From NCBI GenBank assembly GCA_036267355.1, contig DATAWG010000099.1, positions 90,393 to 154,392 on the forward strand: a stretch of DNA of 64,000 bases, written 5' to 3'. This document shows, one piece after another, positions 1 to 30,301 of the stretch. The notes below the pieces were generated by a model. The model searched no databases, was not told the DNA's origin, and worked only from the letters and a program-made list of their open reading frames with translations. The translations under genes were made by a program, and so were the position numbers. The first letter of the stretch is position 1. Each line of letters starts with the position of its first letter. The DNA comes from Pirellulales bacterium. GTDB taxonomy: Bacteria; Planctomycetota; Planctomycetia; Pirellulales; DATAWG01.

Positions 1-3000
1 CGAGCCGCCGCCGCTGACAGTCAGAGCGGTGCTGTTGAGATTCAATGCCGCCGAGACATTGGTGCCGTTGAGCGTGGCAATCGTGCGGGTTGGATTGTTG
101 AAGTTGACGGTGCCGTTGGCGGTTAGCGTGCTGGCCGTGGAGATCGAACCGCCGGGGAGAACGCTCAGCGTTCCGCCCGAGGAAACGCTGACGCCGGTGC
201 CGACGATCGCGCCGCCGCTGCCGATTGCGAGCGTGCCGCCGGTGACATTGGTGTTGCCGGTGTAGGTGTTCGCATTGGTGAGCGTGAGCACGTTCGGTCC
301 GCTTTCGGTGAAAGTGCCGCTGCCGCTGATCACGTTGCCGTAGCTCTGCGGGTTGAAATTGGCGAAGACGAGGGCGGCATTGTCGAGAATGTTGCCGGCG
401 ACCGAGCCGTTCGAGGTTGCGCCATCGCCCAAGCGCAGCGTGCCGCTTGTGATCGTGGTGCCGCCGCTATAAGCATTCGCGCCGGTGAGGGTGAGCGTTC
501 CGCCGTTGACGGTGAGGCTTCCCGCGGGCCCTCCGTCTGCAATCGTGCCGCTGAAGCTCCCGCCGCCGGTGACGGAGAGCGCGGTGCCGAAGAGATCCAG
601 CGCGGCGGAGCCGTTGGTGCCGTTGAGCATGGCAAGCGTGGTGGTCGAGTTGTCCAGGTTGACGACGCCGTTGTCGGTGAGATTCGTCGCCGTGGAGATC
701 GAACCGCCCGCGGCGATGTTCATCGTCGCGCCGGACGAAACATTGATGCCCGCGCCGGCGATCGAGCCCGTGGCGCCGACGTTGAGCGTGCCACTGGCGA
801 CATTGGTGTCGCCGGTGTAGGTGTTGGCGGCATTCAGCACGACGACGGCGCCGGGGCCCGATGTGGTGATTCCGTAGTTATTGCCGTTATCGGTGATCGC
901 TCCGAGAGTGAGCGTGCCGGCGCCGGAGCCGTTGTTGGCCACGTTGAATGTGGCGTTGCCGGTGAGTGTGACGGCGCCGAGCGTGAGTGCATAAGGAATA
1001 TTCGCCCCGGTGCTGCCGCCGGTGACGGAGAGCGTGCTGGCGCCGATCGTGGTTTGGCCGGTGATCGTGGCGAGATTGTATCCCGTGACGTCGATTGTCG
1101 AGTTCGCGGTTACCTGAACATTGTTCGCGAGCGTTTCGGCAACGAGACCGACGATTTCGAAACCTTCGAACGCGCCATTTCCGTTGATGTTGTCCAAGCC
1201 CACGGTTTGGCTAGTGCCGCTGAGGCCAGAGAACACGACATAGTCGCCGACCGTGTAGGTGCCGGGAGTGGTGCTGGTCGCTTGCGTGTAGGTGGTGGGC
1301 ACCGTATCGGAGGCGAGATAATAGGTGGTTCCGCCGAGAGTGATATTGTTGTCGCGACCGCCGGCCGTCGATTCCGCTGCGCCGGTGTAGACATACAGGC
1401 TGTAGCTCGAGTAAGGGATATTGCTGAGATTGAGCGAGAGCGTGCTGCCGGCAGCCCAGTAGAGATATCCGTTGAGCAGGGGAATGCTGCTTCCCGAGTT
1501 GTAGGTGCTGCCGACGCCGGTAAGGGTGAAGGATGCGCCGGTGGGATTGACCGAGGCATCGGTCAGCGACGTGGCCGAGCTGAAGCTGCTCCCCGCAAGA
1601 TTCATCCAGTTGTTCATCGTCGCGCCAGGGGCGCCGGAGCCGTTCGGGGCAAGCGCCGTGTAATTGCCGACGGCATTGCTGCCCTCAAAATGGACGCCGA
1701 TCTGGTTGTTCGTTCCGGGGAGACTTAAAGTGCCGCCATTCAGCACGACCGCGCCGGTGCCGAGCGTCGAATTGCCGAAAGTGGCGATCGTGCCTTGGTT
1801 GATCGTGGTGCCGCCGGTGTACGTATTGCTGCCGGAAAGAGCGAGCGTGCCGGCGTCGGTTTTGGTGAGTCCGCCGGCGCCGCTGATGACTCCTGGCACG
1901 GTCAACGTGTTCGTGGCGGTCACGTCGAAGGTGCCGCCGCTGCTGCCCAAATTGATGGCGCGATTGTTGGCGCCGGCAGTACCGTTAAAGAGTCCGAAGG
2001 TGGCGGTCGCTTGGAGCGTGCCGCCGTTGAGGTTGATCGCGGCGCCTGTGGATGCCGCGCCGAGATCGGCGTTGTTGGCAATGCTGGCGAAGCCGTTGAT
2101 GTAGGTCGCGCCGGTGTAGGTGTTCGTGGCGCCGCCGGCGAGCGTGGTGATGCCGGGGCCGGAAATCGTCAGCGTGTTGCCGGTGATGCCGGAGTTCACG
2201 GTCAGCGAACCGTAATCGATAAGAACGATCCCATTGCCGCCGCCGGCATGGAACGAGCCGCCGGTGATGATTGAACCGGTGGCGGCCGAGGTCACGAGAA
2301 TGCCGCCGGCGTCGACCAGGTCGTCGCCGGTCGCCGCCAACGTGAGCGTCGTGCTCGGGGTGCTGAACGTCAGCACTCCCGATTCCACGGCAGCGGTTGC
2401 GGTGTAGTTCTGCGTGAGATTGGTTTCACCGGCGTCGTTGCCAGAGAATGTATTCGTATTGGAGTAGCTTGCAAGCGCTGCGATCGCTCCGGCGCTGATC
2501 GTGGCCCAGGTGCTGCCATGATTGACCGTGGCATAGGCCGTCCAACTACTGGTGGCATCGACGAGAACGCCGGGGCCGACGGTCGTTTGCGTGGTGGTAA
2601 TGCTACCCGTTGTCGGCAGGACGAAGTCGATCGTTGCGCCGACCGTGCGGGTCAGTGCCCCGAGGACCAGATTATCGCCGGCGCCGAGCGCGACGCCGGC
2701 GGAGATCGACGAAGCGCCGGCGTTGAACGTGGTGCCGGTGAATGTTTCCGCGGCGGATCGGCCACCCAAGAGCTGCAGGGTTCCGCCCGCCAATTCGAGA
2801 GCCGAGCCGGTCGTGGTTCCCGTGACGGCCAATTGAAGCGTTCCGGCGTTGATCGATGTCGTGCCGGTATAGGTGTTCGCGCCGGCGAGGCTAACGAGCC
2901 CGGGGCCGGTCGTCGTCAATCCGCCCGAGCCGCTGATGGCGCTATTGACGGTGAGCGTGTTGCCGGTATTGACCGACCAGTTCTGCGTCGCGCCGAGCAC

Positions 3001-6000
3001 CAGCGGGGCGGCGATCGTCACCGCTCCCGCGGCCGAGTTCGTATTCCCGATCGTGATCCCGCCGGCGCCGATCGTAAGGGTGTTGAAGCTTGGATCGTTG
3101 CTCAGCGTCAGGGCGTTGGGATCGTTGCTGACCAAGCCGAGGATCGACATGTTGGCGCCGAGCGACATGTTTGCTTCGTTGGCGGCGCCGGTTGCGGAGA
3201 AATTGACGGTCGCGGTGGGGCCCGGCGGCAGCGGCGTCGCGATGCCCGTGATGTTCGACACCCAGTTGCTGGTGGCGCTTCCGTCGGAGGCGCCCCACAC
3301 TCCGCTGGCGGCGCCATAGCCGCCCGACCAATATTCAGCCGTGAGCTCGGGTTGAGGCGTGGTGGTAATCGTGACGGCATTTGCGCCGACGGTGAAATTG
3401 CTGACGGTGAAGTTCGTGTTGTTATAGACCGATAGGGCGTAGGTCGAGGCGCCGTTGGCGTTGAGGCCGCCGCCGACGGAACTGAGCAAGGTCTGAACGC
3501 CGGAGGGTACGGTTTGGCCCGCCACGCCATAGACATTCAGCGCCACCGAACCGCTGGCAGGCGTCGATGCGACGGCAGTGCCGCTGGTGGCGATCGTGTC
3601 GAGAATTTGCGTGCCGAGCGTGCTTCCGGCGGCAAAAGTAAGCGATGTGCCGCTGGTGGGCACGATCGCCAGCGTCGAGGGAGTTGTGCTGCCGGTGAGG
3701 TAGTTGAACGTCGCGCCCGCGCTAACGGTTAGCGCGCCGGTGCCGATGCCGCTACTGGTCGAGCCGACGGTTGGCGAGGTGGCCCCCAAGATGCCGGCGC
3801 TGACCGTGGTGCCGCCGGAATAGGTGTTCGCACCGGTCAGGGTGTTGAGGCCCGGACCAATCTGTTGAACGGCGCCGCTGCCGCCGATGACATTGGTGAC
3901 GCTCTGTGCGGCGGCAGTGCCCGGATCGAGCAAGAGCGTGCCGTTGTTGGTCAGGGTGGTAAGTGCGGAAATCGCGCCGCGGGTCGTGCCGTTGCCGAGC
4001 TGCAACGTTGCACCGGGATTGATCGTCGTAGCGCCGGTGTAGGAATCGGCGGCCGTGAGGATGGTCGTGCCCGGGCCGCTTGCCACAACCGCGATGGTTC
4101 CCGTGCCGCCCCCGATCGTGCTGCCGACCATGAGCGATCCGGAGTCGGCCAAGGTCAACGTTTCGGTTCCTGCGGCGCCGGAGGTGATCGCATCGGTGAT
4201 CGAAAGCGAGCCGCCGGCGACTTGCGAGACCGTCAGATTGTTGTCGAGCGTGATCGTCGAACCAGAGAAGGCGGAAGCGGCCGCGGCAGTGCCGCCGATC
4301 GTGAGCGTGCCGGTGTTGCCGGCCACGACCGTGATCGGGCTGGCGATCGTGTAGGAACCAGCCGTTAGCAAGCTGGCGGAGTTCGCGCCGAACGAGGCCC
4401 CGAGAGAAACGACGGCGGTCGAAAGGCCGAGCGGGCCGGTGGCTGAATTGGTGTTGTTCGCGCCGACAAGAATGGTGCCTGCATTGATTGTAGTGCCGAG
4501 CGTGTAGGTGTCGGCGCCGCTAAGCGTCATGATGCCGTTGCCGGTTTTCGAGACGCCGGCGGTATAGGCATTGAACGGCACGAGAGCGGACGAAACGTTC
4601 AGGTCCGACGGTGGATTTTGCGCGCCGCGGCTCACATTGAACGTTAGGTTGCCATTGATCTCGATGGCGACTTCGGTGGCGTTGATGGTTGCCGGATTGC
4701 CCGTCGTGGGATCGGACGTGGCGATGAAGCCTGCCCCGTTGTACATCGAATAATTGCCGTTGCCATCGCCCAGCCCGGCGGCGGAGGAGAGCGTTCCGCC
4801 GACCAGCGTCATGTTGTTGGCGATGGTTTGCCGCACGCCGCTGGCCGCGGTGACGGTGCCGCCGTTGTTGATCACGAGGGCTTCTTTGCCGGTGGTGTAG
4901 CCGAGCACATCGGTGGCATTCAGTCGCAGCGTGCCGCCGTTGTTGACGGTGATCGTCGGCGAGGCGGAAAGCTGCCCCGGCTGGCCGTTCGCCGTATTCA
5001 CCTGCAGCGTGCCGCCGCCGACGATCGTTCCGCCGGTGTAGGTGCTTACGCCGGTGAGGATCAATGTTCCGGAATCGGTTTTCGTGAGCGTGCCCGCTCC
5101 ATTCATCGCGGCCGACATGGTGAGCGTGTTGCTGCTGGTGACGTCGAAGGCGCCGCCATTGTTGCCCAGCGTGACTGCGTTGCCCAAGCTAAAGGTTCCG
5201 GTTGCCTGAAGCGTGCCGCCGTTGAACACGAGCGTTCCGCCGCCCATATTCGCCGCGGCCGCGATGCTCGCAAAGCCGTTTAGATACGTTCCGCCGCTGT
5301 AGGTGTTCGTGCCGCCGAGGGTCGTCATGCCGGGTCCGGAGATCGTCAGCGAGCCGCCGGTGATGGCGGAATTCACGGTCAGCGAACCGTAATCGATGAG
5401 AAGCACGGCGTTGCCGCCGCCGGCATGGAACGAGCCGCCGGTGATTGTTGTACCGGTTGCGGCCGGAATGACCAGGATGCCGCCGGCGTCGGCTAAGTCG
5501 TCATTGGTCGTCGCCAATGTGAGCGTGGTGTTGGGATCGCTGAACGTCACCACTCCCGATTCCACGGCGCCGGTGGCAGTGTAGTTCTGCGTGAGGTTAG
5601 TCTCACCGATATAGGTTGCAGGGAACGAATTCGTATTCGAATAGCTGGCGAGCGGCGCGATCGCTCCGCCGCTGATCGTGGCCCAGTTGGCGCCGCCATT
5701 GACGGTGGCGTACGCAGTCCAGTTGTTGGTGGCGTCGACGAGCACTCCGGGGCCGGTAAACGTGGTGGTCGTCGTGATGCTGCCGGTGGTCGGCAACGTG
5801 AAGTCGACCGTGGCGCCGGCGCTGCGAGTCAAACCGTTGAGCACCAAATTTTTTCCCGAACCGAGCGCGACTCCGGCGGAAATCGCAGACGCGCCGGCGT
5901 TGAACGTCGTCGCAGTGAATGTCTGGCTGGCGGATTCTCCGCCCATCAGTTGCAGCGTGCCGCCTCCCATGGCAAGAGAAGACGTGGCGATGCTGCCCGT

Positions 6001-9000
6001 GGCCGCGAGCCTCAATGTTCCACCGTTGACGCTTGTCGCCCCGGTGTACGTGCTGGCGCCGGAAAGCGTGAGCATGCCGGAGCCGATCTTCGTCAGAGCG
6101 CCGCTCGTTCCGTTGATCGAGCCGGCGAAGGCCGCGGGGCTGGTGTTGTCGCCGCCGACGGTCAAGGTCGCGGCGCCGATCGACACGGTGCCGCCGGTGC
6201 CGGTGAGCGAGCCGATCTGCGTGGCGTATTGAGTGCTCGAGCCGAGGCTCAATGTGCCGCCATTGACCGCTACGGCCGAGTTGTCGCCGAACGCACCGCT
6301 GACATTCGCGACCGACGCCACGCCGGCGGTGAGCGCGCTGCCGCTGCTGACAACTGTCGGGCCGGCGTAGGTGTTGGCGCCGGAGAGCGTTGTCGTGCCG
6401 GTGCCGATGATGGTCAGGCCGCCGGCGCCACTGATGACGCCGGCAAAAGCCGCGGGGTTGGTGTTGTTGCCGCCGATGGTGAGGGTCGCGGAGCCGAGAG
6501 CCACATTGCCGCCGATCGTGCCGCCGCCGGTGAGCGAGCCGATTTGCGTGTTGAGGCCTTCGAGATTCAGGCCCGCGCCGGCCGTATTGGCCAAGGTAAC
6601 GGCAGAATTGTTTCCGAGCGCTCCGCTCACGTTCGCCACCGAAGCGACACCCGCGGCAAGCGTGCCCGCGCTGACCAGGGTTGGTCCGGTATAGGTGTTC
6701 GCGCCGGAGAGATAGAGCGTGTTGGCGCCGGTTTGCGTCAGTCCGAGCACATTCGCGCCGCTGTTGGTGTTCGCGATCACGCCCGCGTAGGTAAAGGCGC
6801 CGTTGACGGCATTGGTCGTGTCGATCCCAAGGCTTGAGCCGCTCGCGAATCCGCCGCTGGCGACGCTCAAGTTCGTGAGCAGGGTTTGCAAGTCGGCGGC
6901 GGTAAAATGGCCCGACGCGCCGACGCCGAACGTCAGCGTCGCGCCCGGATTGACGGTGATATTGGCGGCGGTCCAACTCGCGGTGGTGTTGTCGTAGAGC
7001 GATGTTTCGGAGGTGAATTCGAGCGTGCCGGCGGAGGCCAGCGTCGGACCGGTGTAGGTGTTTGCGCCGGAAAGCGTCAGCGATCCGCTGCCGACTTTGG
7101 TCAAGCCGCCGTCGGGCGTGGCCCCCAAAGCCGTGGCGTGAAGGAGGGCTTGTGAAATCGTGACGGCGTTGGCTTGCGAGTCGATCACGGCGCCGCCGGC
7201 GAGGACATACGCATTGGAGATACCGGTCAAGAAGGTGGTCGAGGAAAGCGCCGCTTGTAGCGTGCCGCCGTTGAAATTGATCGTGCTCGAGCCACCGCTG
7301 CCAAAGCCTCGGGCCGTGCTCAGTATGCCGCCATTGAGATTGAGCACGCCCGTGCCACCATAACCGGCCAGGTAGATCAGATCGCTGGGAAACGCGCCGC
7401 CCGCGGCAACGGTGAGTGTGCCGCCGGCGATGGTGAGCGTGCCCGTTCCGTAAGTTCCGCTGTTGGTATCGCCGCCGCCGATAAACACTCGGCCGCCCCC
7501 CGCGCCGACGCTCAGCGATCCCGATGTGACATCGACCAGTCCGGTGGCGGCGTTGTAGCCGACGAGAAACTCGTCGCCCCCGGAAACGGCGAGCGTGCCG
7601 CCGGCGATGTTGAGCGTGCCATTGCCGCCCGAGCCGTTGCCGATGCGCACGCCGTTCACGCTGGCCGGATTGGCGCCGCTGGCGCCGGAGGCGTCGACAT
7701 TCAGTGTGCCGCCGTTGATGTTCAGCGTACCGGCGCTGGTGCCCCCGATGACGACTTCGCCGGACGTTCCCGCGAGGGAACTGGCGGTTGCGGAGCCGCT
7801 AAAAGTCAATGTCGCGCCGCCATTGACCGTTACGGCGCTACTGCCCGAATTGATGTAGGCGCCGTCGATGTTGGCGATGGTCGATGCGCCGTTGACGGTG
7901 AAGCCGCCGCCCGCGGCCGTGATCGAGCCGGCGGAGGCGATGGTCAAGGTGCCGGAGCTAACGATCGTGCCGCCGCTGTAGATGTTTGCGCCGCTGAGGG
8001 TCAAGGTGTCGCTGCCGGCCATGGTCAGACCGCCCGAGCCGGAGATTGGGCCGCTGATCGTGGTGCCGCCGGTGCCGGTGTCGGCGATCGTGAGCAGATA
8101 GCCGCCGTTGGCGACGCTGCCGCTCACGGTGAACAAGCTGCCGCTGGCATTGGTCCACGATTGGGCTGCGCCGAGGACAATCGGAGCGCTGATCGAATTG
8201 AGGCCCGCGCCGGAGGCGACCGTAATGCCCGAGCCGGCCGTGTTGGTGCCTGATGCGCCGGCCAGGATCGTAATTGAATTGGTCGCAACGGCGCCGGGGC
8301 CGATGGAAACTCCCGCAATGTTGAAATTTAGGCTATTGATCGTGAAGCTTTGGCCGAGCGATTGCGTCAGGTTGGCGGCTCCGGTTGCGGTTTCGAACAC
8401 GTTGGCGGTGCTGATCGGCAGGCCGCTGTTCACGCCACCAGTGGCCGCGGTGACCCAATTGGTTGTGCCGGCGGGGTTCGTGTTCCAATTGCCGTCGGTG
8501 CCGCCGGCCCAATACGTGTCGCCGGCTGCGCCGAGCGCGACATTCAATTGGACGCCTGTGCTCGATGCCGTCAGATACGCGACGTCGCCGGTGGGAGGCG
8601 TAAAGTTTCCAAGCGCAATCGCGGTAGGCGCTGGGCTGCTGGCGAAGCTGAGCAACGTGTACGGCGCCGAGCCGATGCCGAGCGTCGCTCCGCTCAAGGG
8701 CGATAGATTGATCGTGGCGCCGCCGGGGCCCGTGCTCAACATGCCCGTGGTGACGATTTGATCGGTCGCGCTGGCGCTGAAATTAAGATTTAGCACCGCG
8801 GCGCCCGAGGTGCTGCCTCCGAGCGTGAGATTGGTAGCCGACGTCGTCGCGTTGTTGATCGTGAGAGTGCTGGGAGAGGCTTCGGAGTTGGAGAACGCCA
8901 GAGTGCCGATGCCTGATGTGCCGCCGACTCTGAGGCTGCCGGCGCCGCCGGCTGCGGAGCCGATCGTGTAGTTGCCATTGATGAGCAATGTGCCGCTGTT

Positions 9001-10419
9001 GGCGGCGCTGCCGACGGCAACGGCCGTATCGCCCAACGAACCGGCGGTAAGGGCCAATGCGCCGGCATTGACGGTCGTCGCGCCGGTGTAGGTGTTCGGG
9101 CCGGAGAGGGTAAGCGTGCCGGTGCCGACCTTGATTATTCCACCCGGGCCGCTGAGGATGCCGCTGTAGGCCGTGCTGGCGTTGTTGCCGCCGACGAGGG
9201 GAGCCACGGCGGCCGGACTGCCGGCCAGATCTTGAAGCAGGATATTTCCCGAGCCCGAGAGGCCGCCGAGGTTCGGGGCATCGATTCCGGCGGCAAACGT
9301 CAATCCATTGTTCTCAATGACGGCGACGGTGCTGTTTTGGACGGCATTCGTGTTGGCCAATTGGAGCGTGCCGGTGCCAACGGTCGTGGCGCCGTTGTAG
9401 GTGTTGGCGCCCGCGAGGGCCAACGTGCCGCTGCCGGCCGTGGTGATGCCATAGCCGGCGCCGCTGATGACTCCGCCGATCGTCAACGTGTTGTTGCCGA
9501 CGGTGATGGTGGGCGAAGCAGTGAGCGCCACCGGGGCAGTTCCGAGATTGAGGCCGCTCGTCGAACCGGTGAACGTAAAACTTCCGCCGATGCTATACGA
9601 CCCCGAGCCGAGCGACAGCGTCATCGGCGAATTGCTGGTGTTGTCGATCGTGGTTCCACTGCCGATCGTAAACAGTTTGCCGGAGGCGAAACCGCTGAAC
9701 GCGCTCGCCGCCGCGGCCTGGGCAAAGTTCAAGGTGCCGGACGTCAACGTGAAGCCGGTGGTGAAGCCGGTGTTGCCTTCGGTGGTGTTGTTGCCGACGT
9801 CGAGGTTGACCGTCAGGCCGGCGCCGTTTTCCGTAATGATGCCACCGCCGCTCTGCTCATTGTAGCCGAGGGCCGTTTGAAAATTGATCGTGCCGCCGCC
9901 GGCAAGCGTAAGCGCGACTTCGTTGAAGTTCAGTGCAGCGCCGTTATATGTGTCGCCTTCATTCAAGACCGAGCCCGCGGCGACCGTCCAGGTTTGCGTG
10001 CCGCTGAGGTACGAGTTGGCCGAACCGGTCAACGTGATATTGGCGCTGCCGCTGCTGATCGCCAAACCGGTCCAATTGATTGCGGAATCGAGCGCCACAG
10101 TGAATGTGTCGCCGGCAAAGTCGGTCGACGAGGCCCCGAAGGTCAACTGCGCGCCGGCGGGGGCGGCGGCGAGGCCCGAATCGCCCCCCGTGTTGGAAGT
10201 TGTCCAGTAGCTGTAACCTTGCCCGGGGCTGTAAGTGCCCGTCGGACTTCCAAAGCCCGAACTGGTGGTGGTGTTGACGTCGAAGTAGTAGGCCGTTCCA
10301 TTCGCCGCGGCCAGGCGGGGCGCCGCAAACACGGCCGCGACCATGAGCAGCGCTTGCCAACCACAGCCGGCCCAGCCACCGCAGATCGAGGAAAACCAAG
10401 AACCGGTTGAACGACTCAT
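1..10419 (-). CDS. Giant secreted autotransporter-associated beta-strand repeat (PATR) / beta-helix surface protein, 5' (N-terminal) portion; gene continues beyond window start
   Basis: Minus-strand ATG at 10419..10417 gives MSRSTGSWFSSICGGWAGCGWQALLMVAAVFAAPRLAAANG (signal peptide), followed by an uninterrupted frame of Gly/Thr/Ser/Ala/Asn-rich repeats such as GTLTLSGANTYTGATTVNAGTLQL, LTLSGPNTYTGATTVNAGALAL and ITTAGSGTLALAGANTYNGATTVGTGTLQL, all the way to position 1. I spot-checked the frame at 1..36 and at 10381..10419. No stop in this frame would explain why the six-frame track (complete ORFs only) lacks it, while every other frame yields only short Arg/His/Gln-rich shadow ORFs. Confidence 0.8.
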   Translation of the reverse strand, partial: MSRSTGSWFSSICGGWAGCGWQALLMVAAVFAAPRLAAANGTAYYFDVNTTTSSGFGSPTGTYSPGQGYSYWTTSNTGGDSGLAAAPAGAQLTFGASSTDFAGDTFTVALDSAINWTGLAISSGSANITLTGSANSYLSGTQTWTVAAGSVLNEGDTYNGAALNFNEVALTLAGGGTINFQTALGYNEQSGGGIITENGAGLTVNLDVGNNTTEGNTGFTTGFTLTSGTLNFAQAAAASAFSGFASGKLFTIGSGTTIDNTSNSPMTLSLGSGSYSIGGSFTFTGSTSGLNLGTAPVALTASPTITVGNNTLTIGGVISGAGYGITTAGSGTLALAGANTYNGATTVGTGTLQLANTNAVQNSTVAVIENNGLTFAAGIDAPNLGGLSGSGNILLQDLAGSPAAVAPLVGGNNASTAYSGILSGPGGIIKVGTGTLTLSGPNTYTGATTVNAGALALTAGSLGDTAVAVGSAANSGTLLINGNYTIGSAAGGAGSLRVGGTSGIGTLAFSNSEASPSTLTINNATTSATNLTLGGSTSGAAVLNLNFSASATDQIVTTGMLSTGPGGATINLSPLSGATLGIGSAPYTLLSFASSPAPTAIALGNFTPPTGDVAYLTASSTGVQLNVALGAAGDTYWAGGTDGNWNTNPAGTTNWVTAATGGVNSGLPISTANVFETATGAANLTQSLGQSFTINSLNFNIAGVSIGPGAVATNSITILAGASGTNTAGSGITVASGAGLNSISAPIVLGAAQSWTNASGSLFTVSGSVANGGYLLTIADTGTGGTTISGPISGSGGLTMAGSDTLTLSGANIYSGGTIVSSGTLTIASAGSITAAGGGFTVNGASTIANIDGAYINSGSSAVTVNGGATLTFSGSATASSLAGTSGEVVIGGTSAGTLNINGGTLNVDASGASGANPASVNGVRIGNGSGGNGTLNIAGGTLAVSGGDEFLVGYNAATGLVDVTSGSLSVGAGGGRVFIGGGDTNSGTYGTGTLTIAGGTLTVAAGGAFPSDLIYLAGYGGTGVLNLNGGILSTARGFGSGGSSTINFNGGTLQAALSSTTFLTGISNAYVLAGGAVIDSQANAVTISQALLHATALGATPDGGLTKVGSGSLTLSGANTYTGPTLASAGTLEFTSETSLYDNTTASWTAANITVNPGATLTFGVGASGHFTAADLQTLLTNLSVASGGFASGSSLGIDTTNAVNGAFTYAGVIANTNSGANVLGLTQTGANTLYLSGANTYTGPTLVSAGTLAAGVASVANVSGALGNNSAVTLANTAGAGLNLEGLNTQIGSLTGGGTIGGNVALGSATLTIGGNNTNPAAFAGVISGAGGLTIIGTGTTTLSGANTYAGPTVVSSGSALTAGVASVANVSGAFGDNSAVAVNGGTLSLGSSTQYATQIGSLTGTGGTVSIGAATLTVGGDNTSPAAFAGSINGTSGALTKIGSGMLTLSGASTYTGATSVNGGTLRLAATGSIATSSLAMGGGTLQLMGGESASQTFTATTFNAGASAISAGVALGSGKNLVLNGLTRSAGATVDFTLPTTGSITTTTTFTGPGVLVDATNNWTAYATVNGGANWATISGGAIAPLASYSNTNSFPATYIGETNLTQNYTATGAVESGVVTFSDPNTTLTLATTNDDLADAGGILVIPAATGTTITGGSFHAGGGNAVLLIDYGSLTVNSAITGGSLTISGPGMTTLGGTNTYSGGTYLNGFASIAAAANMGGGTLVFNGGTLQATGTFSLGNAVTLGNNGGAFDVTSSNTLTMSAAMNGAGTLTKTDSGTLILTGVSTYTGGTIVGGGTLQVNTANGQPGQLSASPTITVNNGGTLRLNATDVLGYTTGKEALVINNGGTVTAASGVRQTIANNMTLVGGTLSSAAGLGDGNGNYSMYNGAGFIATSDPTTGNPATINATEVAIEINGNLTFNVSRGAQNPPSDLNVSSALVPFNAYTAGVSKTGNGIMTLSGADTYTLGTTINAGTILVGANNTNSATGPLGLSTAVVSLGASFGANSASLLTAGSYTIASPITVVAGNTGTLTIGGTAAAASAFSGSTITLDNNLTVSQVAGGSLSITDAITSGAAGTETLTLADSGSLMVGSTIGGGTGTIAVVASGPGTTILTAADSYTGATTINPGATLQLGNGTTRGAISALTTLTNNGTLLLDPGTAAAQSVTNVIGGSGAVQQIGPGLNTLTGANTYSGGTTVSAGILGATSPTVGSTSSGIGTGALTVSAGATFNYLTGSTTPSTLAIVPTSGTSLTFAAGSTLGTQILDTIATSGTAVASTPASGSVALNVYGVAGQTVPSGVQTLLSSVGGGLNANGASTYALSVYNNTNFTVSNFTVGANAVTITTTPQPELTAEYWSGGYGAASGVWGASDGSATSNWVSNITGIATPLPPGPTATVNFSATGAANEANMSLGANMSILGLVSNDPNALTLSNDPSFNTLTIGAGGITIGNTNSAAGAVTIAAPLVLGATQNWSVNTGNTLTVNSAISGSGGLTTTGPGLVSLAGANTYTGTTSINAGTLQLAVTGTTTGSALELAGGTLQLLGGRSAAETFTGTTFNAGASSISAGVALGAGDNLVLGALTRTVGATIDFVLPTTGSITTTQTTVGPGVLVDATSSWTAYATVNHGSTWATISAGAIAALASYSNTNTFSGNDAGETNLTQNYTATAAVESGVLTFSTPSTTLTLAATGDDLVDAGGILVTSAATGSIITGGSFHAGGGNGIVLIDYGSLTVNSGITGNTLTISGPGITTLAGGATNTYTGATYINGFASIANNADLGAASTGAAINLNGGTLQATATFGLFNGTAGANNRAINLGSSGGTFDVTATNTLTVPGVISGAGGLTKTDAGTLALSGSNTYTGGTTINQGTIATFGNSTLGTGAVVLNGGTLSLPGTNNQIGVHFEGSNAVGNYTALAPNGSGAPGATMNNWMNLAGSSFSSATSLTDASVNPTGASFTLTGVGSTYNSGSSIPLLNGYLYWAAGSTLSLNLSNIPYSSYSLYVYTGAAESTAGGRDNNITLGGTTYYLASDTVPTTYTQATSTTPGTYTVGDYVVFSGLSGTSQTVGLDNINGNGAFEGFEIVGLVAETLANNVQVTANSTIDVTGYNLATITGQTTIGASTLSVTGGSTGANIPYALTLGAVTLTGNATFNVANNGSGAGTLTLGAITDNGNNYGITTSGPGAVVVLNAANTYTGDTNVASGTLNVGATGSIAGAGINVSSGATMNIAAGGSISTATNLTDNGVVNLDNSTTTLAMLNGTNGSAALDLFGTALSVTGGGSFSGTIADGGPAGSLTVNGGTLTLTGANAYSGGTTITSGTLRLGDGATSNGSVAGNILDNAALVFANFNPQSYGNVISGSGTFTESGPNVLTLTNANTYTGNTNVTGGTLAIGSGGAIVGTGVSVSSGGTLSVLPGGSISTASTLTANGTVNFNNPTRTIATLNGTNVSAALNLNSTALTVSGGGS

Positions 10420-12998: not shown

Positions 12999-13763
12999 AT
13001 GAGCACACAAACCGATACGCAATTCGATTCGCTGGCACCATCGATTCGGTTGCACGACGGATCGCGCCGCACAGCGGAAGCAGTCGCTGCGCCGTATTTT
13101 TCGTTGGCGCGGCTACGGTTGGAGCGGAACGAGCCGATCGTCGAACCCGAGGGCAATCTGCGTGCGGGCTATCGAATTGCAAAGCGGGGGTTCGATATCG
13201 CCGGCGCGATTGTTGCGATTGTGCTGCTTTCGCCGGTGTTGGTCACGGTGTTCGTCGTGCTCTCGATTAGCACCTGGGGGCGGCCCTTGATTCGGCAAGA
13301 GCGGGTCGGATATTTGGGACGACGATTCGGCATGTACAAATTTCGCAGCATGCGCCTCGATGCCGAAAAGCTGCAGCATCTCGTCAAGAATGAACACAAT
13401 TCCGGGCCGATTTTCAAGAACCGCCGCGATCCGCGGATCACGCGCATCGGCCGACTTCTCCGCCGCACGAGCATCGACGAGATGCCGCAATTGTTCAACG
13501 TGCTTTTCGGACACATGTCGCTGGTCGGCCCGCGGCCGCCGTTGGCGAAGGAAGTGGCCCACTATAAGGCGTGGCAACGCCGTCGTTTGGCCATCCCGCC
13601 GGGGCTGACGTGCCTTTGGCAGGTGAGCGGGCGGTCGGAAATCGGCTTCGACGAGTGGGTGCGGATGGATATCTGGTATTTGCGAAATCAAAACCTGGCC
13701 ACCGATTTGCAGCTTCTGGTCCGCACGCCCTTGTGCGTGCTGAGCTGCCGCGGAGCGTATTGA
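12999..13763 (+). CDS. Bacterial sugar transferase (polyprenyl-phosphate glycosyl-1-phosphate transferase; EpsB/WcaJ/ExoY C-terminal-domain type; exopolysaccharide initiation)
   Basis: ATG at 12999 (MSTQTDTQ...). Family motifs KRGFDIAGAIVAIVLLSPVLV, GRRFGMYKFRSM, GPIFKNRRDPRITRIGRLLRRTSIDEMPQLFNVLFGHMSLVGPRP and LWQVSGRSEIGFDEWVRMDIWYLRNQNLATDL match PF02397. Confidence 0.85.
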   Translation: MSTQTDTQFDSLAPSIRLHDGSRRTAEAVAAPYFSLARLRLERNEPIVEPEGNLRAGYRIAKRGFDIAGAIVAIVLLSPVLVTVFVVLSISTWGRPLIRQERVGYLGRRFGMYKFRSMRLDAEKLQHLVKNEHNSGPIFKNRRDPRITRIGRLLRRTSIDEMPQLFNVLFGHMSLVGPRPPLAKEVAHYKAWQRRRLAIPPGLTCLWQVSGRSEIGFDEWVRMDIWYLRNQNLATDLQLLVRTPLCVLSCRGAY

Positions 13764-13810
13764 CTAGGGATTAGGGTGAGGGGTTAGGGTGAGGGGGTTA
13801 GGGTGAGGGC
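13764..13810. repeat. Family C G-rich telomere-like repeat (ctagggattagggtgaggggttagggtgagggggttagggtgagggc); G-quadruplex-capable
   Basis: Four or more GGG runs with short loops and TTAGGG units. Its reverse complement recurs 70 bp downstream at 13881..13918. Confidence 0.7.
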
Positions 13811-13880
13811 TGTGCGACGATGGGTTTCCCGCAACGATGCCCGGTGCGCTATAATCCAGGGGAGGCTCGTCCCGCGTCGT

Positions 13881-13918
13881 CCTATCCCCTCACCCTCGCC
13901 CTCACCCTCACCCTTTCC
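13881..13918. promoter_or_regulatory. Family C C-rich partner (cctatcccctcaccctcgccctcaccctcaccctttcc) 5 bp upstream of the ctpA ATG; a potential 5'-UTR stem with 13764..13810
   Basis: Inverted complement of the upstream G-rich element. The same C-rich box abuts the start codons at 19369, 22768, 29019 (minus) and 56658 (minus). Confidence 0.55.
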
Positions 13919-13922
13919 TCCG

Positions 13923-15293
13923 ATGCCTCGTCGAAATTATCTGATCATCCTCGCGATGGCGGTTGTGTCGTTTGCCTGCTACGGAGCGGTTGACCACAAT
14001 CGCTACGGCCGTTTTTTCGCGGAAGTCATCAACAAGGTCGACCGCGATTATGTGAAGCCGGTCGACAAGGAAAAGCTGTTCGATGCCGCAGTGAATGGAA
14101 TGCTGGCGACGCTCGACGAGAATTCCAAGTTCTACGAACCGGAAGATGCACAATCGAAGTTGCTTTCGGTGATCGATCAACAGTTCGGCGGCGTGGGCAT
14201 CGAGGTCAGCGCAGATCCGGCGACGCAGCAGATCGTCGTCCGCGGCACGATCGTCGGCTCGCCCGCTTATGCCGCCCACCTGCTGGTCGGCGATCGGATT
14301 GCAGGCATCGACGGTCAGTCCATCGCGCCGGATCCAAATCGGACAACCGGGCCATCGCTGATCGAGCAGGCGACAAAGCTGATCCGCGGCCCGATCGGCA
14401 CGACCGTGCGGCTGGAGTTGATTCGCGCCGGACAGGCCAAGCCGGTCGAAGTGACGCTCGAGCGGGCCGAAATCAGGGTCGATTCGGTGCTTGGCGACAG
14501 CCGCAATGCCGACGATTCCTGGAACTTTCACCTCGCGGGCCATCCCGAGATCGGCTACGTGCGAATCCGATCGTTCGGCGATCGCACGCCCCAGGAACTG
14601 CAAACCGCGCTCACCTCGATCGGCGCCGACAAGCTGAAGGGGCTCGTGCTCGATCTGCGCGGCGATCCGGGCGGCCGGCTCGATGCGGCCATTGATGTGT
14701 GCAGCTTTTTCATCCCGTCCGGGCAAACCGTTGTCACCACGCGCGGCCGCAATGACCGAGTGCAAGAGCGAGAGATCTCGCACGGACCGGCGATCTGCAC
14801 CGATGTGCCGATGGTGGTGTTGATCGATTCGATGAGCGCCAGCGCGAGCGAAATCGTTTCGGCATGCTTGCAAGACTACCATCGAGCGGTGATTTGCGGC
14901 CAGCGCTCGTTCGGCAAGGGAACCGTGCAGCGGATCATTCCGATGGGGGGCAACAACAGTGTGCTCAAGCTGACCACGGCCACGTATTGGCGGCCGAGCA
15001 ACAAGAACATCCATCGCCACAAGGGCGCCAAGGATTCGGACGAATGGGGTGTGCTACCGGACAAGGGTTTCGAGGTGAAAATGACCGACAAGGAACTCGA
15101 CGATTGGCTTAAAGACCGCGCTGCCCGGGATGTCGTGCATCGTTCGCAGCCGCCCGCGATCGGCGACGATCCACACGCCGAGGCAGCGGCGGCGATCGAT
15201 CCGCAATTGCAGCGGGCCGTCGATTATCTCGAGCACAAACCGGCCGAGGCCGCGCCGGCCGGAACGGCCGAGACCAAGAAAAACGCGGCATGA
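13923..15293 (+). CDS. ctpA: S41 family C-terminal processing peptidase (Ctp/Prc-like) with PDZ domain, N-terminal membrane anchor/signal
   Basis: ATG at 13923 gives MPRRNYLIILAMAVVSFACYG. FGGVGIEV tail-specific protease motif; PDZ segment GSPAYAAHLLVGDRIAGIDGQS; catalytic region GLVLDLRGDPGG...SASASEIVSACLQD...GKGTVQ. The track ORF starts upstream at 13803 inside the G-rich repeat; I chose the signal-peptide ATG. Confidence 0.85.
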   Translation: MPRRNYLIILAMAVVSFACYGAVDHNRYGRFFAEVINKVDRDYVKPVDKEKLFDAAVNGMLATLDENSKFYEPEDAQSKLLSVIDQQFGGVGIEVSADPATQQIVVRGTIVGSPAYAAHLLVGDRIAGIDGQSIAPDPNRTTGPSLIEQATKLIRGPIGTTVRLELIRAGQAKPVEVTLERAEIRVDSVLGDSRNADDSWNFHLAGHPEIGYVRIRSFGDRTPQELQTALTSIGADKLKGLVLDLRGDPGGRLDAAIDVCSFFIPSGQTVVTTRGRNDRVQEREISHGPAICTDVPMVVLIDSMSASASEIVSACLQDYHRAVICGQRSFGKGTVQRIIPMGGNNSVLKLTTATYWRPSNKNIHRHKGAKDSDEWGVLPDKGFEVKMTDKELDDWLKDRAARDVVHRSQPPAIGDDPHAEAAAAIDPQLQRAVDYLEHKPAEAAPAGTAETKKNAA

Positions 15294-19072: not shown

Positions 19073-19177
19073 CAAGCGCGCGGCATGCGGTGCGTGATTT
19101 AAAAACACCGAAGTGATGGGAGCGATTGGACGGCCCCGGCTCGCGGCAGCGAGTTGGGGTCGTGGTGTTTTGTAGCG

Positions 19178-19232
19178 GCGAGGGGCGAGGGACTAGGGAC
19201 TAGGGACGAGGGGCGAGGGGCGAGCAAGGGGG
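19178..19232. repeat. Family C G-rich repeat (gcgaggggcgagggactagggactagggacgaggggcgaggggcgagcaaggggg)
   Basis: Multiple GGG/GGGG runs. The complementary C-rich box lies at 19342..19368. Confidence 0.7.
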
Positions 19233-19341: not shown

Positions 19342-19368
19342 CTCGCCCCTCGCCCCTCGCCCCTTCCC
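19342..19368. promoter_or_regulatory. Family C C-rich box (ctcgcccctcgcccctcgccccttccc) ending at the base before the ATG of the TPP enzyme gene
   Basis: Directly abuts ATG 19369 and is the inverted complement of 19178..19232, about 110 bp upstream. Confidence 0.55.
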
Positions 19369-22717: not shown

Positions 22718-22724
22718 GCGTTTT

Positions 22725-22767
22725 TCCCCGAACCCTATCCCCTCACCCTCGCCCCCACCCTTTCCCC
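22725..22767. promoter_or_regulatory. Family C C-rich box (ccccgaaccctatcccctcaccctcgcccccaccctttcccc) directly abutting the GTG start of the RND permease
   Basis: Same CCTCACCCTCGCCC core as at 13881, 19342 and 29124. It lies in the 50-bp gap between the adaptor and permease genes; no G-rich partner was found nearby. Confidence 0.5.
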
Positions 22768-25700
22768 GTGTTCTCACGCTTCTTCATCGAACGGCCGATC
22801 TTCGCCTGGGTGGTGTCGATCGTCATCGTCTTGGTCGGCGGAGTGGCGGCGTTTCGATTGCCGATCGCGCAGTATCCCGATATCACGCCACCGACCGTGC
22901 AGGTGTCGGCGATCTATCCCGGCGCGAATGCGCAAGTCGTCGCCGACAGCGTGGCCGCGCCGATCGAGCAGCAAGTCAACGGCGTCGAGCGGATGATGTA
23001 TATGTCGTCGCAATGCACCAACGACGGCGCGTATTCGCTGACGATCACGTTCGAGCTTGGCACCGATCTCAATATGGCGCAGGTGTTGGTGCAAAACCGC
23101 GTGGCGCTTGCCATGCCGCAATTGCCGTCGCAGGTGCAGGTGCAAGGAGTCACGACGAAAAAGAAATCGCCAAGCATTCTCTTGGCGGTAAACCTGATAT
23201 CGCCACACCACTCGCTCGACGATCTTTACCTTTCGAACTACGCCACGATCCAGATCAAAGACGAATTGCTGCGGCTTCCCGGCGTCGGCGATTTGAGCTA
23301 TTTGGGCCAGCGCGATTACAGCATGCGAGTGTGGCTCGATCCACAAAGGATGGCCTCGCGCAATCTGACCGCCAGCGAGGTCGTGCGCGCGGTGCAAAAC
23401 CAAAACGTGCAAGTGGCTGCCGGGCAGATCGGCCGCGAACCGATGCTTCCCGGCCAGCAATTTCAGTTCACGATGAGCACGCTGGGCCGATTGCTGGATC
23501 GCTCGCAGTTCGAAAACATCATCATCAAAACCGGCGCTGCCGACGCGACACAAGGCGACACATCCAGCCAAGTGGTTCGGCTCCGCGACGTGGCCCGCGT
23601 CGAGCTCGGAGCGCAGCAATACGATCAAATATGCCGGCTCGACGGGCAGCCGTCGGTCGGATTGGCGGTGTTCCAATTGCCCGGCTCGAACGCGCTCGCC
23701 GTGGCCAATGCGGTCAAAGCCACGATGGAAACGCTCAAAAAGCGGTTTCCCAAAGACCTCGACTACCGCATCGTTTACGACACAACGCCGTTCATTGACC
23801 AATCGATCCACGAAGTGTTCAAGACGCTCGGCGAAGCGATCTTGTTGGTGGCGATCGTGGTGCTGTTCTTCCTGCAAGATTGGAAGGCGATGATTTTGCC
23901 GATGATCGACGTGCCCGTCTCGCTGGTGGGCACATTTGCCATCATGGCCATTCTGGGATTCAGCCTGAACAATCTTACGCTGTTCGGCATGGTGCTAGCG
24001 ATCGGCATCGTGGTCGATGATGCCATTGTCGTGCTGGAAAATGTCGAGCGGCAACTGTCGTTCGGGCTCGACCCAAAAACTGCCACGATCAGGGCCATGG
24101 ACGAAATCACCGGCCCGATCATCGCCATCACGCTGGTGCTCTGTGCGGTGTTTTTGCCGAGCGTGTTCATGCCGGGCGTGACGGGACAGTTCTTCCGGCA
24201 GTTTGCACTGGTGATTTCCTCCGCGATGGTTATCTCGGCGATCAATGCCCTCACGCTAACGCCGTCTCGCGCCGTGGCCATCTTCTCGTCCGAAGAACTC
24301 GACGAGCACGGCCATCCGCGGCGCGAGGCGCTTCCCTGGTGGATTTTCGCGATCCTTGGCGGGCTGATCTCGGCGAAGCTACTGCACGATCCGATGATGG
24401 GCTGGCTGGGGATTTCGATGGGGCATGACTCGCACGGGGCGGCGGCGTCCCGCGGCATGTCGGAATTGCTCTCGTGGCTAGTTTTCGCAGCCGCCGCGCT
24501 GCCGGGACTCATCGCCGGCGGCGTGCTTGGAAAGATCGTGATCCGGCCGGTCAACAAAGCGCTGGCGCGGCTGTTCGGCGCATTCAATCGCCTGTTCGAC
24601 CGATTGACGGTTTTCTATGGCCAAACGATCGCCCGGCTGTTGCGTGTGTCGGCGATCGTGATGCTGGTGTACGTCGGCTTGCTCTTCCTGACCGGCTGGT
24701 CGATGAACCGAGCGCCGAAGGGATTCATTCCGACGCAAGATCAGGGCTACTTGCTCGTGAATGTCCAATTGCCCGACTCGGCTTCGGTGCAGCGAACGAA
24801 ACAGGTGATGGCGCAAATCGATCGGATCGCGCTCGGCAGCGCCGACGGCAAGGATCGCACGCCCGGCGTGATCCACACGCTGTCGATTGCCGGGCAGTCG
24901 TTCTTGCTCAATGCCAATGGATCCAATTTCGGTTCGTGCTTTGTCATCCTCGACGATTTTTCCAAGCGCCACACGGCGGCGGAATACGACGAAGCGGTCG
25001 CCCAAACGCTCCGCAAGCGATTCGCCGCCGAGATCGACGGGGCGCAGATTCAAGTGTTTCGCGCTCCGCCGATTCAAGGCCTCGGCACGGCGGGCGGCTT
25101 TAAGGTGCAAGTCGAGCAGCGCGGCTATTCCGATTTGCCGGCACTGCAGCAGCAATGCGAACAATTGGTGGCCGATGCCGGCAGCGACCGTCGGCTCGTC
25201 GGGTTATTCAGCATGTTCCGAGCCGGCACGCCGCAGATTTTCCTCGATATCGATCGCAGCAAATGCCAATTGCTCGGCGTCAATGTCAACGAAGTGTTCA
25301 ACACGCTCGAAGTGTACATGGGGGGCTATTTCATCAATTTGTTCAATGCGTTCGGCCGCACCTGGCAAGTGAACATGATGGCCGAATCGCGGTTCCGCAA
25401 TCGCGCCTCCGATTTGCAGCAACTGCAGGTCCGCAACGCGGCCGGCCAGATGGTTCCGCTGGGAACGCTGGTGAAATCGGAAAGCGTCGGCGGGCCCGTG
25501 ATGGTTATCCGCTACAACATGTATCCCTCGGCCCCCGTGGTCGGCAATCCCGCGCCGGGCACCAGTTCCGGCGACGTGGTGCGGATCATCGAAAACAAAG
25601 GCGATCAAGCCGGCATCGTATCGGAGTGGACCGAGATCATGTATTTACAGTTGCAAGAAGGGAGTGGGGCAATTGTCGTGTTCCTCGTCGGCTCGGCACT

Positions 25701-26196: not shown

Positions 26197-26352
26197 CACG
26201 ACGAAGCCGTGCTCGACAACACTTGCTCCGCGCTTTGGATACCGTAAACTCAACGAATATGGCAGCGTAAGTTTGACCGGCCGGCCCGCGCCGAGCATCG
26301 CTTGTGGTTTCGCGCGTCGGCCATTCATAAATCGCTCACCACTCGAACCACC

Positions 26353-29019: not shown

Positions 29020-29050
29020 GGGCGAGGGGCGACGGGCGAGGGGCGAGTGA
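29020..29050. promoter_or_regulatory. Family C element (gggcgaggggcgacgggcgaggggcgagtg on +; C-rich on the coding strand) abutting the start codon of the minus-strand LPLAT gene
   Basis: Reverse complement reads cactcgcccctcgcccgtcgcccctcgccc-ATG. The partner copy at 29124..29157 overlaps the dapF stop. Confidence 0.5.
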
Positions 29051-30095: not shown

Positions 30096-30301
30096 GCGAA
30101 AATTCCCGTCATCGAATCAACCTGTGGCCGAGAGATTTTACGGAAAGCAGCGAATCGCGGCAAACCCGGTTTCAGGGCGGAAGGTGACTCACGCGGAGTC
30201 GCGTCGGGACGGAGAGCCGGGAGCCGGCCGGAATCTGAAATTCGTACCCTCCGCTCCCTCCTTGGCTCCGCGTGAGAAGCTGCCAAGCTTATACTACTTG
30301 C

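Follow-up and report, generated by a model that had tools for sequence, protein, structure and literature searches.

The window analyzed here, a 64-kb stretch of contig DATAWG010000099.1 from a Pirellulales bacterium, has a G+C content of 62% and carries, at the borders of its genes, short tandem arrays of a unit of about 7 nucleotides (nt), of the type CCCCTNN on one strand and NNAGGGG on the other. All coordinates without a locus name are positions in this window, and L-numbers designate related metagenome-assembled loci that were fetched for comparison. The neighboring genes, as confirmed with Pfam, encode a sugar transferase, the CtpA S41 protease, a thiamine pyrophosphate (TPP) enzyme, an HlyD-type fusion protein, an AcrB-type pump (resistance-nodulation-division, RND), a DUF374 protein, DapF, and two NPCBM proteins. 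By combining Tandem Repeats Finder (TRF) with a scan for G- and C-tracts, we found eight short-period arrays, or nine when counting one upstream of a methyltransferase gene that an initial annotation of this DNA had overlooked (Table 1). TRF reports for all eight a period of 7 (or 6, or a composite of 13-14), 3.3-6.9 copies, and 83%-100% matches; periods are 6-7 nt, rising to 13-14 in arrays with two alternating unit variants.

Every array in the window sits at a gene boundary. Read on the sense strand, the C-rich arrays (C arms) of four genes, namely, ctpA and those for the TPP enzyme, the RND pump, and the DUF374 protein, stop 0-9 nt short of the start codon. Three of these C arms have a complementary G-rich array (G arm) upstream, across spacers of 76 nt (ctpA), 117 nt (TPP), and 76 nt (DUF374), and all three inverted pairs lie between co-directional genes. 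The C arrays of the window contain 16-28 C and only 1-3 G. Our coordinates and sequences agree with the initial annotation, which had reported a C-rich element at five starts and a G-rich partner upstream in three cases: all three partners are present, and four of the five C arrays end before well-backed starts, the fifth lying inside the coding sequence of an NPCBM gene. The annotation had also described a common core at all sites, and this we do not find. The exact core CCTCACCCTCGCCC is confined to the ctpA and RND sites, whose C arms have 21 identical nt in common (CCTATCCCCTCACCCTCGCCC), and the remaining sites are built from related but different units (CTCGCCC, TGACCCC). Several unit families occur within the 64 kb (GGGTGAG/GGGTTAG, GGGGCGA, GGGACTA, and GGGGTCA), and the three spacers show no significant similarity to one another or to any other sequence in the window.

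The arrays are not placed at random. There are seven occurrences of a 14-mer, with up to two mismatches, in the window, against 0.92 expected. In four of the eight arrays, the C-rich strand is the sense strand of a downstream gene whose start lies no more than 10 nt beyond the end of the array; Monte Carlo placement in the window gives an expectation of 0.035 for random positions and of 0.26 if the arrays are confined to intergenic DNA (P = 1.5e-4). Scanning the window with the covariance models of Rfam 15 at the gathering score gave no match.

Table 1. Arrays of the window and associated features. The extent is that given by TRF or the tract scan, with the base in excess on the plus strand in parentheses.
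Feature	Position	Strand	Extent	Composition and setting
G arm, ctpA pair	13767-13809	+	13767-13809 (G)	(TTAGGG TGAGGGG)x3; begins 3 nt past stop (13761-13763) of upstream sugar-transferase gene; G4Hunter 1.95
Spacer (loop), ctpA pair	13810-13885	+		TATAAT box at 13851-13856; unlike other spacers
C arm, ctpA pair	13886-13921	+	13886-13914 (C)	CTCACCC/CTCGCCC units, then CCCTTTCCTCC; ATG 13923
G arm, TPP pair	19177-19224	+	19177-19224 (G)	GGGGCGA x2, GGGACTA x3, GGGGCGA x2; begins 3 nt past terminator-like hairpin and T-run
C arm, TPP pair	19342-19368	+	19342-19364 (C)	CTCGCCC x3, then CCTTCCC; adjoins ATG 19369
Solitary C array, RND pump	22723-22767	+	22723-22768 (C)	Fills 50-nt gap from membrane-fusion gene stop 22717 to GTG 22768
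C arm, DUF374/LPLAT-like	29020-29047	-	29012-29047 (G)	Adjoins ATG 29019
G arm, DUF374 pair	29124-29154	-	29124-29154 (C)	(GGGGCGA)x4; encodes last ~10 dapF codons, ends at dapF TAA (29121-29123)
C array, NPCBM gene	56578-56631	-	56578-56631 (G)	TGACCCC units and CTCGCCC; codons ~10-27 (TPDPRPLTPVLPLAP), signal-peptide n-region; without partner arm
Extra array, methyltransferase gene	42709-42782	+		~10 units CTCCGTG/CGCCGTG/CTTCGTC; ends 4 nt before in-frame ATG 42787 (start inferred)

The orthologous junctions in uncultured Pirellulales metagenome-assembled genomes show which features of the arrays persist. The ctpA junction carries an array in five genomes: the window and four others at 62%-74% amino acid (aa) identity. 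In place of the window unit CTCACCC, we find in L001 (74%) a GGGGCTA array, a 112-nt spacer, and a CCCCTAG array before the ATG; in L002 (73%) a GGGCGAG array, a spacer, and a CTCGCCC-type array before the ATG; in L096 (72%), whose contig begins past the expected position of the G arm, units of CCCCTGA type (TGACCCC TGTCCCC TGACCCC TTCCTCCC-ATG); and in L097 (62%) a CTCCGCC/CTCCACT array of 150 nt that occupies the whole intergenic region without a G arm (100 C vs. 16 G). The upstream neighbor in L001 differs from that in the window and the array pair stays with ctpA, so the pair travels with ctpA. Arrays occur at the DUF374 junction in four genomes: the window, L013 (87%) and L014 (90%), both with solitary C arrays of other units, and L015 (73%), with an inverted pair of GTCCGTG/GTCAGTT and AACTGAC/CACTGAC units. 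C arrays likewise mark the RND junction in four genomes, with other units at the same position in L016 (86%), L017 (83%), and L018 (71%); AcrB homologs below ~70% identity, outside the clade, mostly have Shine-Dalgarno (SD) motifs of GGAG/GAGG type where the clade has C arrays. At the TPP junction, arrays are found in two genomes, the window and L013, the latter with a C arm (CCCCTAGTCCCTCGCCCCTCGCCCCTTCCTC-ATG) and no G arm.

Across these junctions a G arm is seen at ctpA in three of five genomes (it is absent in L097, and the L096 contig ends before its position), at TPP in one of two, at DUF374 in two of four, and at RND in none of four. Where present, it matches its own C arm. By these comparisons, it is the C arm that persists, whereas the G arm can be missing. 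At the TPP junction, TAGTCCC, the complement of the three GGGACTA units in the window's G arm, is found in the C arm of L013 and is gone from that of the window, for which the simplest reading is that an ancestral C arm was copied in inverted orientation to give the TPP G arm.

As far as the aligned orthologs go, it is the position, the 7-nt periodicity, and the C-richness (consensus C3-4 T N N) that are conserved; the sequence of the unit is not. In almost all orthologs, a distance of 0-9 nt separates the C arm from the start, and the alignment of the arms keeps little beyond the C-tracts and the end CCCCTTCC. This 3' end, CCCCTTCC(TC)-ATG, is common to different genes in different genomes and, together with the 21-nt identity between the ctpA and RND arms, points to some copying between sites. 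The initial annotation had read the repeated placement at translation starts as the mark of a shared regulatory device. The placement is borne out, within the window and at orthologous junctions; a common box, with only two sites having the exact core and the unit turning over between species, is a candidate that we reject. The lack of a common sequence box makes a shared trans-regulator unlikely.

We extended the comparison to related loci. TRF applied to 1.33 Mb from 93 sources (the window and 92 loci, many of them planctomycete-like and some from other phyla) shows period 7 to be the commonest short period, with 70 arrays against 38 of period 6 and 36 of period 9. After two more ctpA loci had been added, the orientation of arrays was surveyed in 94 loci and the window with an automatic gene caller. 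Among arrays within 30 nt upstream of starts, the sense strand has more C than G in 28 and more G than C in five (P = 7e-5); among those at -25 to +12 nt from stops, the bias is reversed, with 16 G-rich and four C-rich (P = 0.012). Thirteen of 21 arrays within -25 to +12 nt of a stop begin at -1 to +8 nt from it. Many arrays form inverted pairs, in which the first arm starts -1 to +8 nt from a stop and the second stops 0-30 nt short of the following start codon; we count about 20 further pairs in the related loci, most of them between co-directional genes. More distant Pirellulales and Thermoguttaceae have inverted pairs flanking stop and start that are made of heptamers incapable of forming a G-quadruplex (G4): AAGGATG/TTCATCC, AGTAGTC/CTACTGA, and GTCAGTT/AACTGAC. 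GATTGCA/CAATCTG and TGGTGAG/ACCACTC are further G4-incapable units in the surveyed loci. An additional inverted heptamer pair occurs in L021 (2349-2513; ATCGAGG x5.7 / CTCGATC x4.7), with a duplex energy of about -72 kcal/mol; it falls within the stretch that an AcrB homolog matches and may represent an insertion or a frameshifted gene.

Folding of the three paired leaders bears out the hairpin potential noted in the initial annotation. The predicted energies are -95.7 kcal/mol for the ctpA pair (z = -4.4 vs. shuffles), -110.8 kcal/mol for the TPP pair (z = -2.8), and -89.6 kcal/mol for the DUF374 pair (z = -6.8), with predicted stems of 25-45 bp between the G and C arms. Each arm by itself is so extreme in its G or C bias that it cannot self-pair. 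When the G arm is left out, the region from -40 to +40 of the four C-arm genes folds at only -7 to -13 kcal/mol, compared with -22.7 +/- 9.4 kcal/mol for 27 other genes of the window, and the predicted unpaired probability from -20 to +10 is 0.64-0.72, compared with 0.46 (P = 0.004 and 0.002). Without the G arm, the start region of these genes is thus predicted to be exposed to an unusual degree; with it, the leader is buried. The G arms contain 4-7 tracts of three or more G, separated by loops of 3-4 nt, and have G4Hunter scores of 1.62-1.95, so that by sequence criteria the quadruplexes suggested in the initial annotation are plausible for these arms; as a general principle they are not supported, since relatives build the same architecture from G4-incapable heptamers.

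The clade makes little use of SD motifs. With the same gene caller, 15 of 90 starts in the close clade have an SD-like motif ahead of them, compared with 33 of 78 in distant loci, and the listing of starts in the window has no SD-like motif upstream of any of the four C-arm starts. Planctomycetes are listed among the phyla with a low SD fraction (PMC5397173). By eye, a -10-like box can be recognized in all four ctpA spacers (TATAAT in the window, and TATAAT, TAAAAT, and TACCAT among L001, L002, and L096), about 50-65 nt before the ATG, and in both TPP spacers (TAAACT and TACACT), where the block TA(A/C)ACTGGCA.TCGC is kept. A TATACT box (42641-42646) also lies ~60 nt upstream of the methyltransferase array. 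To judge from these boxes, ctpA and TPP transcripts may start downstream of the G arm; the situation that the initial annotation itself named as refuting its mRNA hairpin might then hold.

The start codons on which these distances depend are backed, for ctpA, TPP, DUF374, and RND, by N-terminal conservation with synonymous differences in the orthologs. For RND the Pfam alignment begins at residue 2, and for ctpA the N terminus MPRRNYL is kept in orthologs. The CtpA protein starting at ATG 13923 is absent from an exact protein look-up, and the recorded model (P0001) begins 11 codons later. Gene callers are misled by the arrays: ctpA is lengthened to 513 aa in L002 (10001-11542), gene calling in the window produces a spurious 40-codon extension at 13803, and the DUF374 models (P0122-P0128) have 252-260 aa instead of 238, the extension running through the arrays. 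Public ctpA and DUF374 protein models therefore carry spurious N termini encoded by repeats. In the same way, the caller's GTG start of the methyltransferase gene, at 42586, would read through the array that precedes the in-frame ATG. At the other end of a gene, the DapF tail VRGEGRGARGE* is encoded by the array, as the initial annotation had seen, and orthologous DapF proteins have no such tail.

The arrays also appear to break short-read assemblies. The L096 contig opens with Illumina adapter sequence (CCTACACGACGCTCTTCCGATCT, positions 1-23) and then begins just past the expected position of the ctpA G arm, and the first base of the L003 contig falls exactly at the G arm in the window. L003 is identical to the window. 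We considered a phase-variable contingency locus and set it aside, given this identity and the housekeeping nature of the genes (a protease, a TPP enzyme, an efflux pump, and an acyltransferase-like protein).

Several other elements of the window deserve mention. A terminator-like hairpin (19130-19173; ACGGCCCCGGCTCGCGGCAGCGAGTTGGGGTCGT followed by GGTGTTTTGT) directly precedes the TPP G arm. The hairpin is kept in L013 (~13930-13975, minus strand), where a G-to-A change turns a G-U pair into an A-U pair and where both the T-run and the G arm are missing. An REP-like palindromic element (for repetitive extragenic palindromic) with the core GCGAAACCGCAAGCG ... CGCTTGCGGTTTCGC occupies 43664-43727, just past the stop of the 42586-43644 gene; there is a partial copy near 26300 (26294-26317), and a related long palindrome lies within the loop of the L002 ctpA pair (L002 10030-10095). 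A 46-nt unit is repeated in three copies at 59713-59851 (96% identity, score 264), upstream of and overlapping the predicted start of the 59830-61443 gene. On the minus strand, an open reading frame (ORF) of >3,470 codons (1-10419; third-position G+C 0.81) runs off the left end of the window and represents the gene of a giant protein; it contains several 21-nt repeats (472-522, 7404-7443). Finally, G-poor C/T-rich stretches without clear periodicity precede other predicted starts (30242-30271, 36282-36311, 61645-61674, and 26323-26352; for example, tcgtaccctccgctccctccttggctccgc-GTG at 30272), and may be decayed arrays or reflect a general leader preference of this genome.

In our proposal, the system is built primarily on its persistent piece, an array (C3-4 T N N)n rich in C and poor in G that lies directly 5' of the start and would serve, in an SD-poor lineage, as an unstructured, SD-independent leader unable to fold on itself. 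The G arm would be a secondary, inverted copy of the C arm and sit on the opposite side of the intergenic region, where the upstream gene stops or just past that point. The gene's own promoter would lie within the spacer, such that transcripts starting there carry the open C arm alone; the only transcript to include the G arm would be the mRNA of the upstream gene, at its tail. In read-through RNA containing both arms, the 25-45-bp stem would loop out the intergenic region, bury the leader up to the start, and place the stop and start codons side by side. The arms would arise and be homogenized through replication slippage combined with gene conversion or inverted template switching, which would account for units that diverge from species to species in arms that nevertheless remain complementary. 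The proposal builds on what is directly observed, that is, the anatomy and positions of the arrays, their orientation bias, the positional conservation with sequence turnover, and the potential for pairing. Taken as a whole, from the heptamer class through the leader and the clamp to the slippage origin, we put this explanation at about an even chance of being right; its mechanistic part (leader, clamp, and mutational origin) is tentative and, on present evidence, would on balance be expected to need revision.

A number of points weigh against this proposal. The automatic gene calls behind the orientation survey include a few artefacts of crude starts, and the comparison genes in the leader-folding control had crude start-codon calls as well. 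A scan of the three window spacers for the two hexamers of sigma-70 found no full promoter. The arms are near-perfect Watson-Crick complements without an excess of G-U pairs on the sense strand, and the asymmetry between G-U and A-C has mixed signs, both when whole regions are folded on the two strands and in the duplex energies of the arms alone; with arms so nearly perfect, their complementarity says nothing for selection at the RNA level over selection at the DNA level or a mutational origin. In L009, one pair located between genes of the minus strand has its better fold on the plus strand. At TPP the central GGGACTA units of the G arm are unpartnered, and the terminator-like hairpin ahead of this arm means that read-through may be rare there. 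The arrays moreover spill into coding ends, at the dapF tail and the NPCBM signal peptide, which looks like unselected expansion; these intrusions and the near-perfect arms fit functionless repeats, which the persistence of the arrays and their strand rule fit less well.

Functionless, self-expanding repeats are indeed the strongest rival. Under this explanation, slippage and inverted template-switch copying let the arrays grow until they reach selected sequence (a stop, a promoter, or a start), and the strand bias reflects tolerance alone, G-rich or structured RNA not being tolerated beside a start. The turnover of units between species, the homogenization that must be recent if arms are near-perfect and show no G-U asymmetry, the intrusion into the dapF C terminus and the NPCBM signal peptide, and the L001 array that stays with ctpA beside a different neighbor are all in its favor, as is the failure of Rehm (2015, PMC4692102) to find a regulatory role for similar repeats. 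It sits less easily with persistence at the same four junctions down to 62%-90% aa identity, as ordinary simple sequence repeats are short-lived; with the orientation bias at both starts and stops; with C arms that end 0-9 nt from the start in nearly all orthologs; and with the CCCCTTCC(TC)-ATG end at different genes and genomes and the 21-nt identity between two window sites. We regard it as a serious possibility, albeit somewhat unlikely.

The initial annotation favored a long 5'-UTR hairpin (UTR, untranslated region), formed by both arms on one mRNA, that sequesters the ribosome-binding region of co-regulated genes. The stable predicted stems, the reach of the C arm to 0-9 nt from the start, and a start region that the G arm is predicted to close and that is otherwise open agree with this model. 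However, there is no SD motif to sequester; two of the five window sites and many orthologous sites lack a G arm; and the G arm overlaps the dapF coding sequence or follows the transferase stop, and hence is part of the upstream transcript. With -10-like boxes inside the ctpA and TPP loops, and with units that vary by site and species, share no box, and imply no common trans-factor, the model is unlikely.

We also hold it unlikely that a G4 or i-motif, in DNA or RNA, modulates transcription, either as a G4 on the nontemplate strand after the upstream gene or upstream of a promoter. The G arms do have at least four tracts of G3-4 with 3-4-nt loops and G4Hunter scores of 1.6-1.95, and oligonucleotides of related heptamers form both structures in vitro (Rehm 2015, PMC4692102). 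Relatives, however, build the same architecture from heptamers without G-tracts (the L015 DUF374 junction, for instance, has AACTGAC units), the conserved arm is the C arm of the sense strand, and a duplex or hairpin would compete strongly with a G4 wherever both arms are present.

Alternatively, the stem, which extends from 0-8 nt past the stop to 0-25 nt before the start, might bridge the two for translational coupling: a terminating ribosome would melt the base of the stem, free the nucleotides on the start side, and come to rest beside the start codon, which would favor re-initiation across a long intergenic region in an organism poor in SD motifs. The distance of -1 to +8 nt from stop to arm in most pairs, the small distances from arm to start, the prevalence of co-directional genes, and the low use of SD motifs suit such a bridge. 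The flanking genes lack a functional link, however, and the upstream partner changes between species; the long loops contain promoter-like boxes, the TPP G arm follows a terminator-like hairpin, and solitary C arms are common. Such bridging is improbable.

Still less probable is a role of the C arm in loading Rho, as a rut-like leader through which the downstream gene is attenuated and which the G arm masks. The C-rich, G-poor composition of the C arm, in L097 as in the window, would be appropriate, and because the G arm comes first and the C arm second, the latter would be masked from the moment of its synthesis; yet most arrays are 25-45 nt, shorter than typical rut sites, and abut the site of ribosome loading. 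Least credible is a mobile element similar to REPs, to REPINs (REP doublets that form hairpins), or to MITEs (miniature inverted-repeat transposable elements), inserted at the junctions: inverted arms 76-117 nt apart, genome-specific unit families that recur at several sites, the 21-nt identity of the ctpA and RND arms, and the REP-like proximity to stop codons are compatible with it, but the arms are tandem heptamers that are not individually palindromic, no target-site duplications were seen, orthologous sites keep their position and change their unit, and the unrelated spacers, found nowhere else in the window, argue against a composite mobile element, so that one with a conserved core was rejected.

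A leader formed by the C arm, with the G arm as an optional clamp, thus remains the reading that we prefer. In its broadest form, paired arrays would generally serve SD-poor Planctomycetota as an evolvable means of gene expression over long intergenic distances, with the stem joining the upstream stop to the downstream start. Translation of the downstream gene would then depend entirely on ribosomes that terminate upstream, in a shunt-like termination-reinitiation, or on the open C-rich leader that the gene's own promoter provides, and the 7-nt lattice may allow cooperative binding of an RNA chaperone for single strands, such as S1 or a cold-shock protein. So wide a generalization is speculative and probably goes too far; if true, it would give a function to the heptamer repeats of several low-SD phyla, including the short tandemly repeated repetitive (STRR) sequences, TAACTGA, and GGGNATC. 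Whatever the mechanism, four regularities constrain it: the start-side array persists with its unit replaced; the partner may be absent but otherwise always matches its own C arm; relative to translation, the order of G before C hardly varies; and the same architecture is made from G4-incapable heptamers. These constraints speak against a common principle in either sequence-specific binding proteins or G-quadruplexes, and suggest that what matters in these organisms, where SD motifs are seldom used, is the strand composition and the pairing near stop and start codons.

Among known repeat systems, telomeres were the comparison made in the initial annotation, and the ctpA G arm does contain three TTAGGG hexamers. 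These are interleaved with TGAGGGG, however, and amount to one unit variant of one array; the orthologous arrays consist of GGGGCTA or GGGCGAG, and all arrays are internal and at gene borders, the ctpA arm lying 13.8 kb into the window with no replicon end. We therefore reject the telomeric reading. In hairpins that mask a ribosome-binding site and couple translation, such as that between coat and replicase in MS2, translation of the upstream cistron opens the start region of the downstream one. Here, too, the downstream start region pairs with the end of the upstream cistron; unlike in such hairpins, no SD motif is involved, the stem is long (25-45 bp) and repetitive, the upstream gene is not conserved, and the structure is a predicted one. 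REP elements, bacterial interspersed mosaic elements (BIMEs), and REPINs of enterobacteria and pseudomonads are intergenic and often close to stops, and their inverted doublets can form long hairpins in mRNA; in these traits, and in having genome-specific families, they resemble the arrays. REP units are imperfect palindromes of 20-40 nt with a conserved sequence, and REPINs have a conserved spacer and many copies, whereas our arms are tandem heptamers without palindromy, separated by unrelated spacers.

Heptamer repeats at gene borders have been known since the STRR sequences of cyanobacteria, reportedly described by Mazel et al. in 1990; those of Xanthomonas and Nostoc were characterized in 2015, with their function left unexplained. 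TAACTGA heptamers are repeated just upstream of starts in Beggiatoaceae, Cyanobacteria, and Bacteroidetes (MacGregor 2015, PMC4679880). The regions lack a canonical ribosome-binding site and occur in low-SD lineages, and a translational (post-transcriptional) role has been suggested, not proven; the repeats are almost all direct, with one inverted set among 170 in the genome, and the single conserved unit was taken to suggest a sequence-specific binder (MacGregor 2015, PMC4679880). Like TAACTGA and STRR repeats, the heptamers of the window end within a few nt of the start, with no SD-like motif. They differ in having units of the C4TNN type that are not conserved and in forming inverted pairs; units resembling TAACTGA (AACTGAC/ACTGAAC) are limited to the distant loci L015 and L043.

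The closest match is provided by the G-rich heptamer repeats of Xanthomonas (GGGAATC) and Nostoc (GGGGA(C/T)T), which are intergenic and prefer co-directional ORFs (Rehm 2015, PMC4692102). Their G strand is on the coding strand up to 50 nt past a stop, or on the noncoding strand up to 50 nt upstream of an ORF; hundreds of copies are scattered through the genome, with 70-75 convergent inverted pairs per Xanthomonas genome; sites common to two species vary in length and sequence; and the oligonucleotides form G4 and i-motifs in vitro, with no link to gene function and no function identified (Rehm 2015, PMC4692102). The window arrays have the same 7-nt unit with a G3-4 tract, repeated head to tail in usually about four or more copies, and G arms with at least four G-tracts, quadruplex-capable by sequence. 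They also lie at gene boundaries between co-directional genes, with the G strand past the stop and the C strand before the ORF (16:4 and 28:5 in the wider survey), and include convergent inverted pairs, three of them in the window. They differ in their units (GGGTGAG, GGGTTAG, GGGGCGA, GGGACTA, GGGGTCA) and in phylum, in having several unit families per 64 kb rather than one or two related consensus units per genome, in arms that adjoin codons within 0-9 nt, and in relatives that put G4-incapable heptamers at the same junctions with a persistent C arm on the start side. In the literature on Planctomycetes (G-quadruplexes, heptamer repeats, SD usage), we found no description of such arrays. We conclude that the arrays very probably belong to this class, sharing with it every structural and positional trait tested except the sequence of the unit. 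The class and its positional rules are already published; what is new is its presence in a third, unrelated phylum, together with the comparative facts that a start-side C arm outlasts its own sequence and that an optional G arm follows it.

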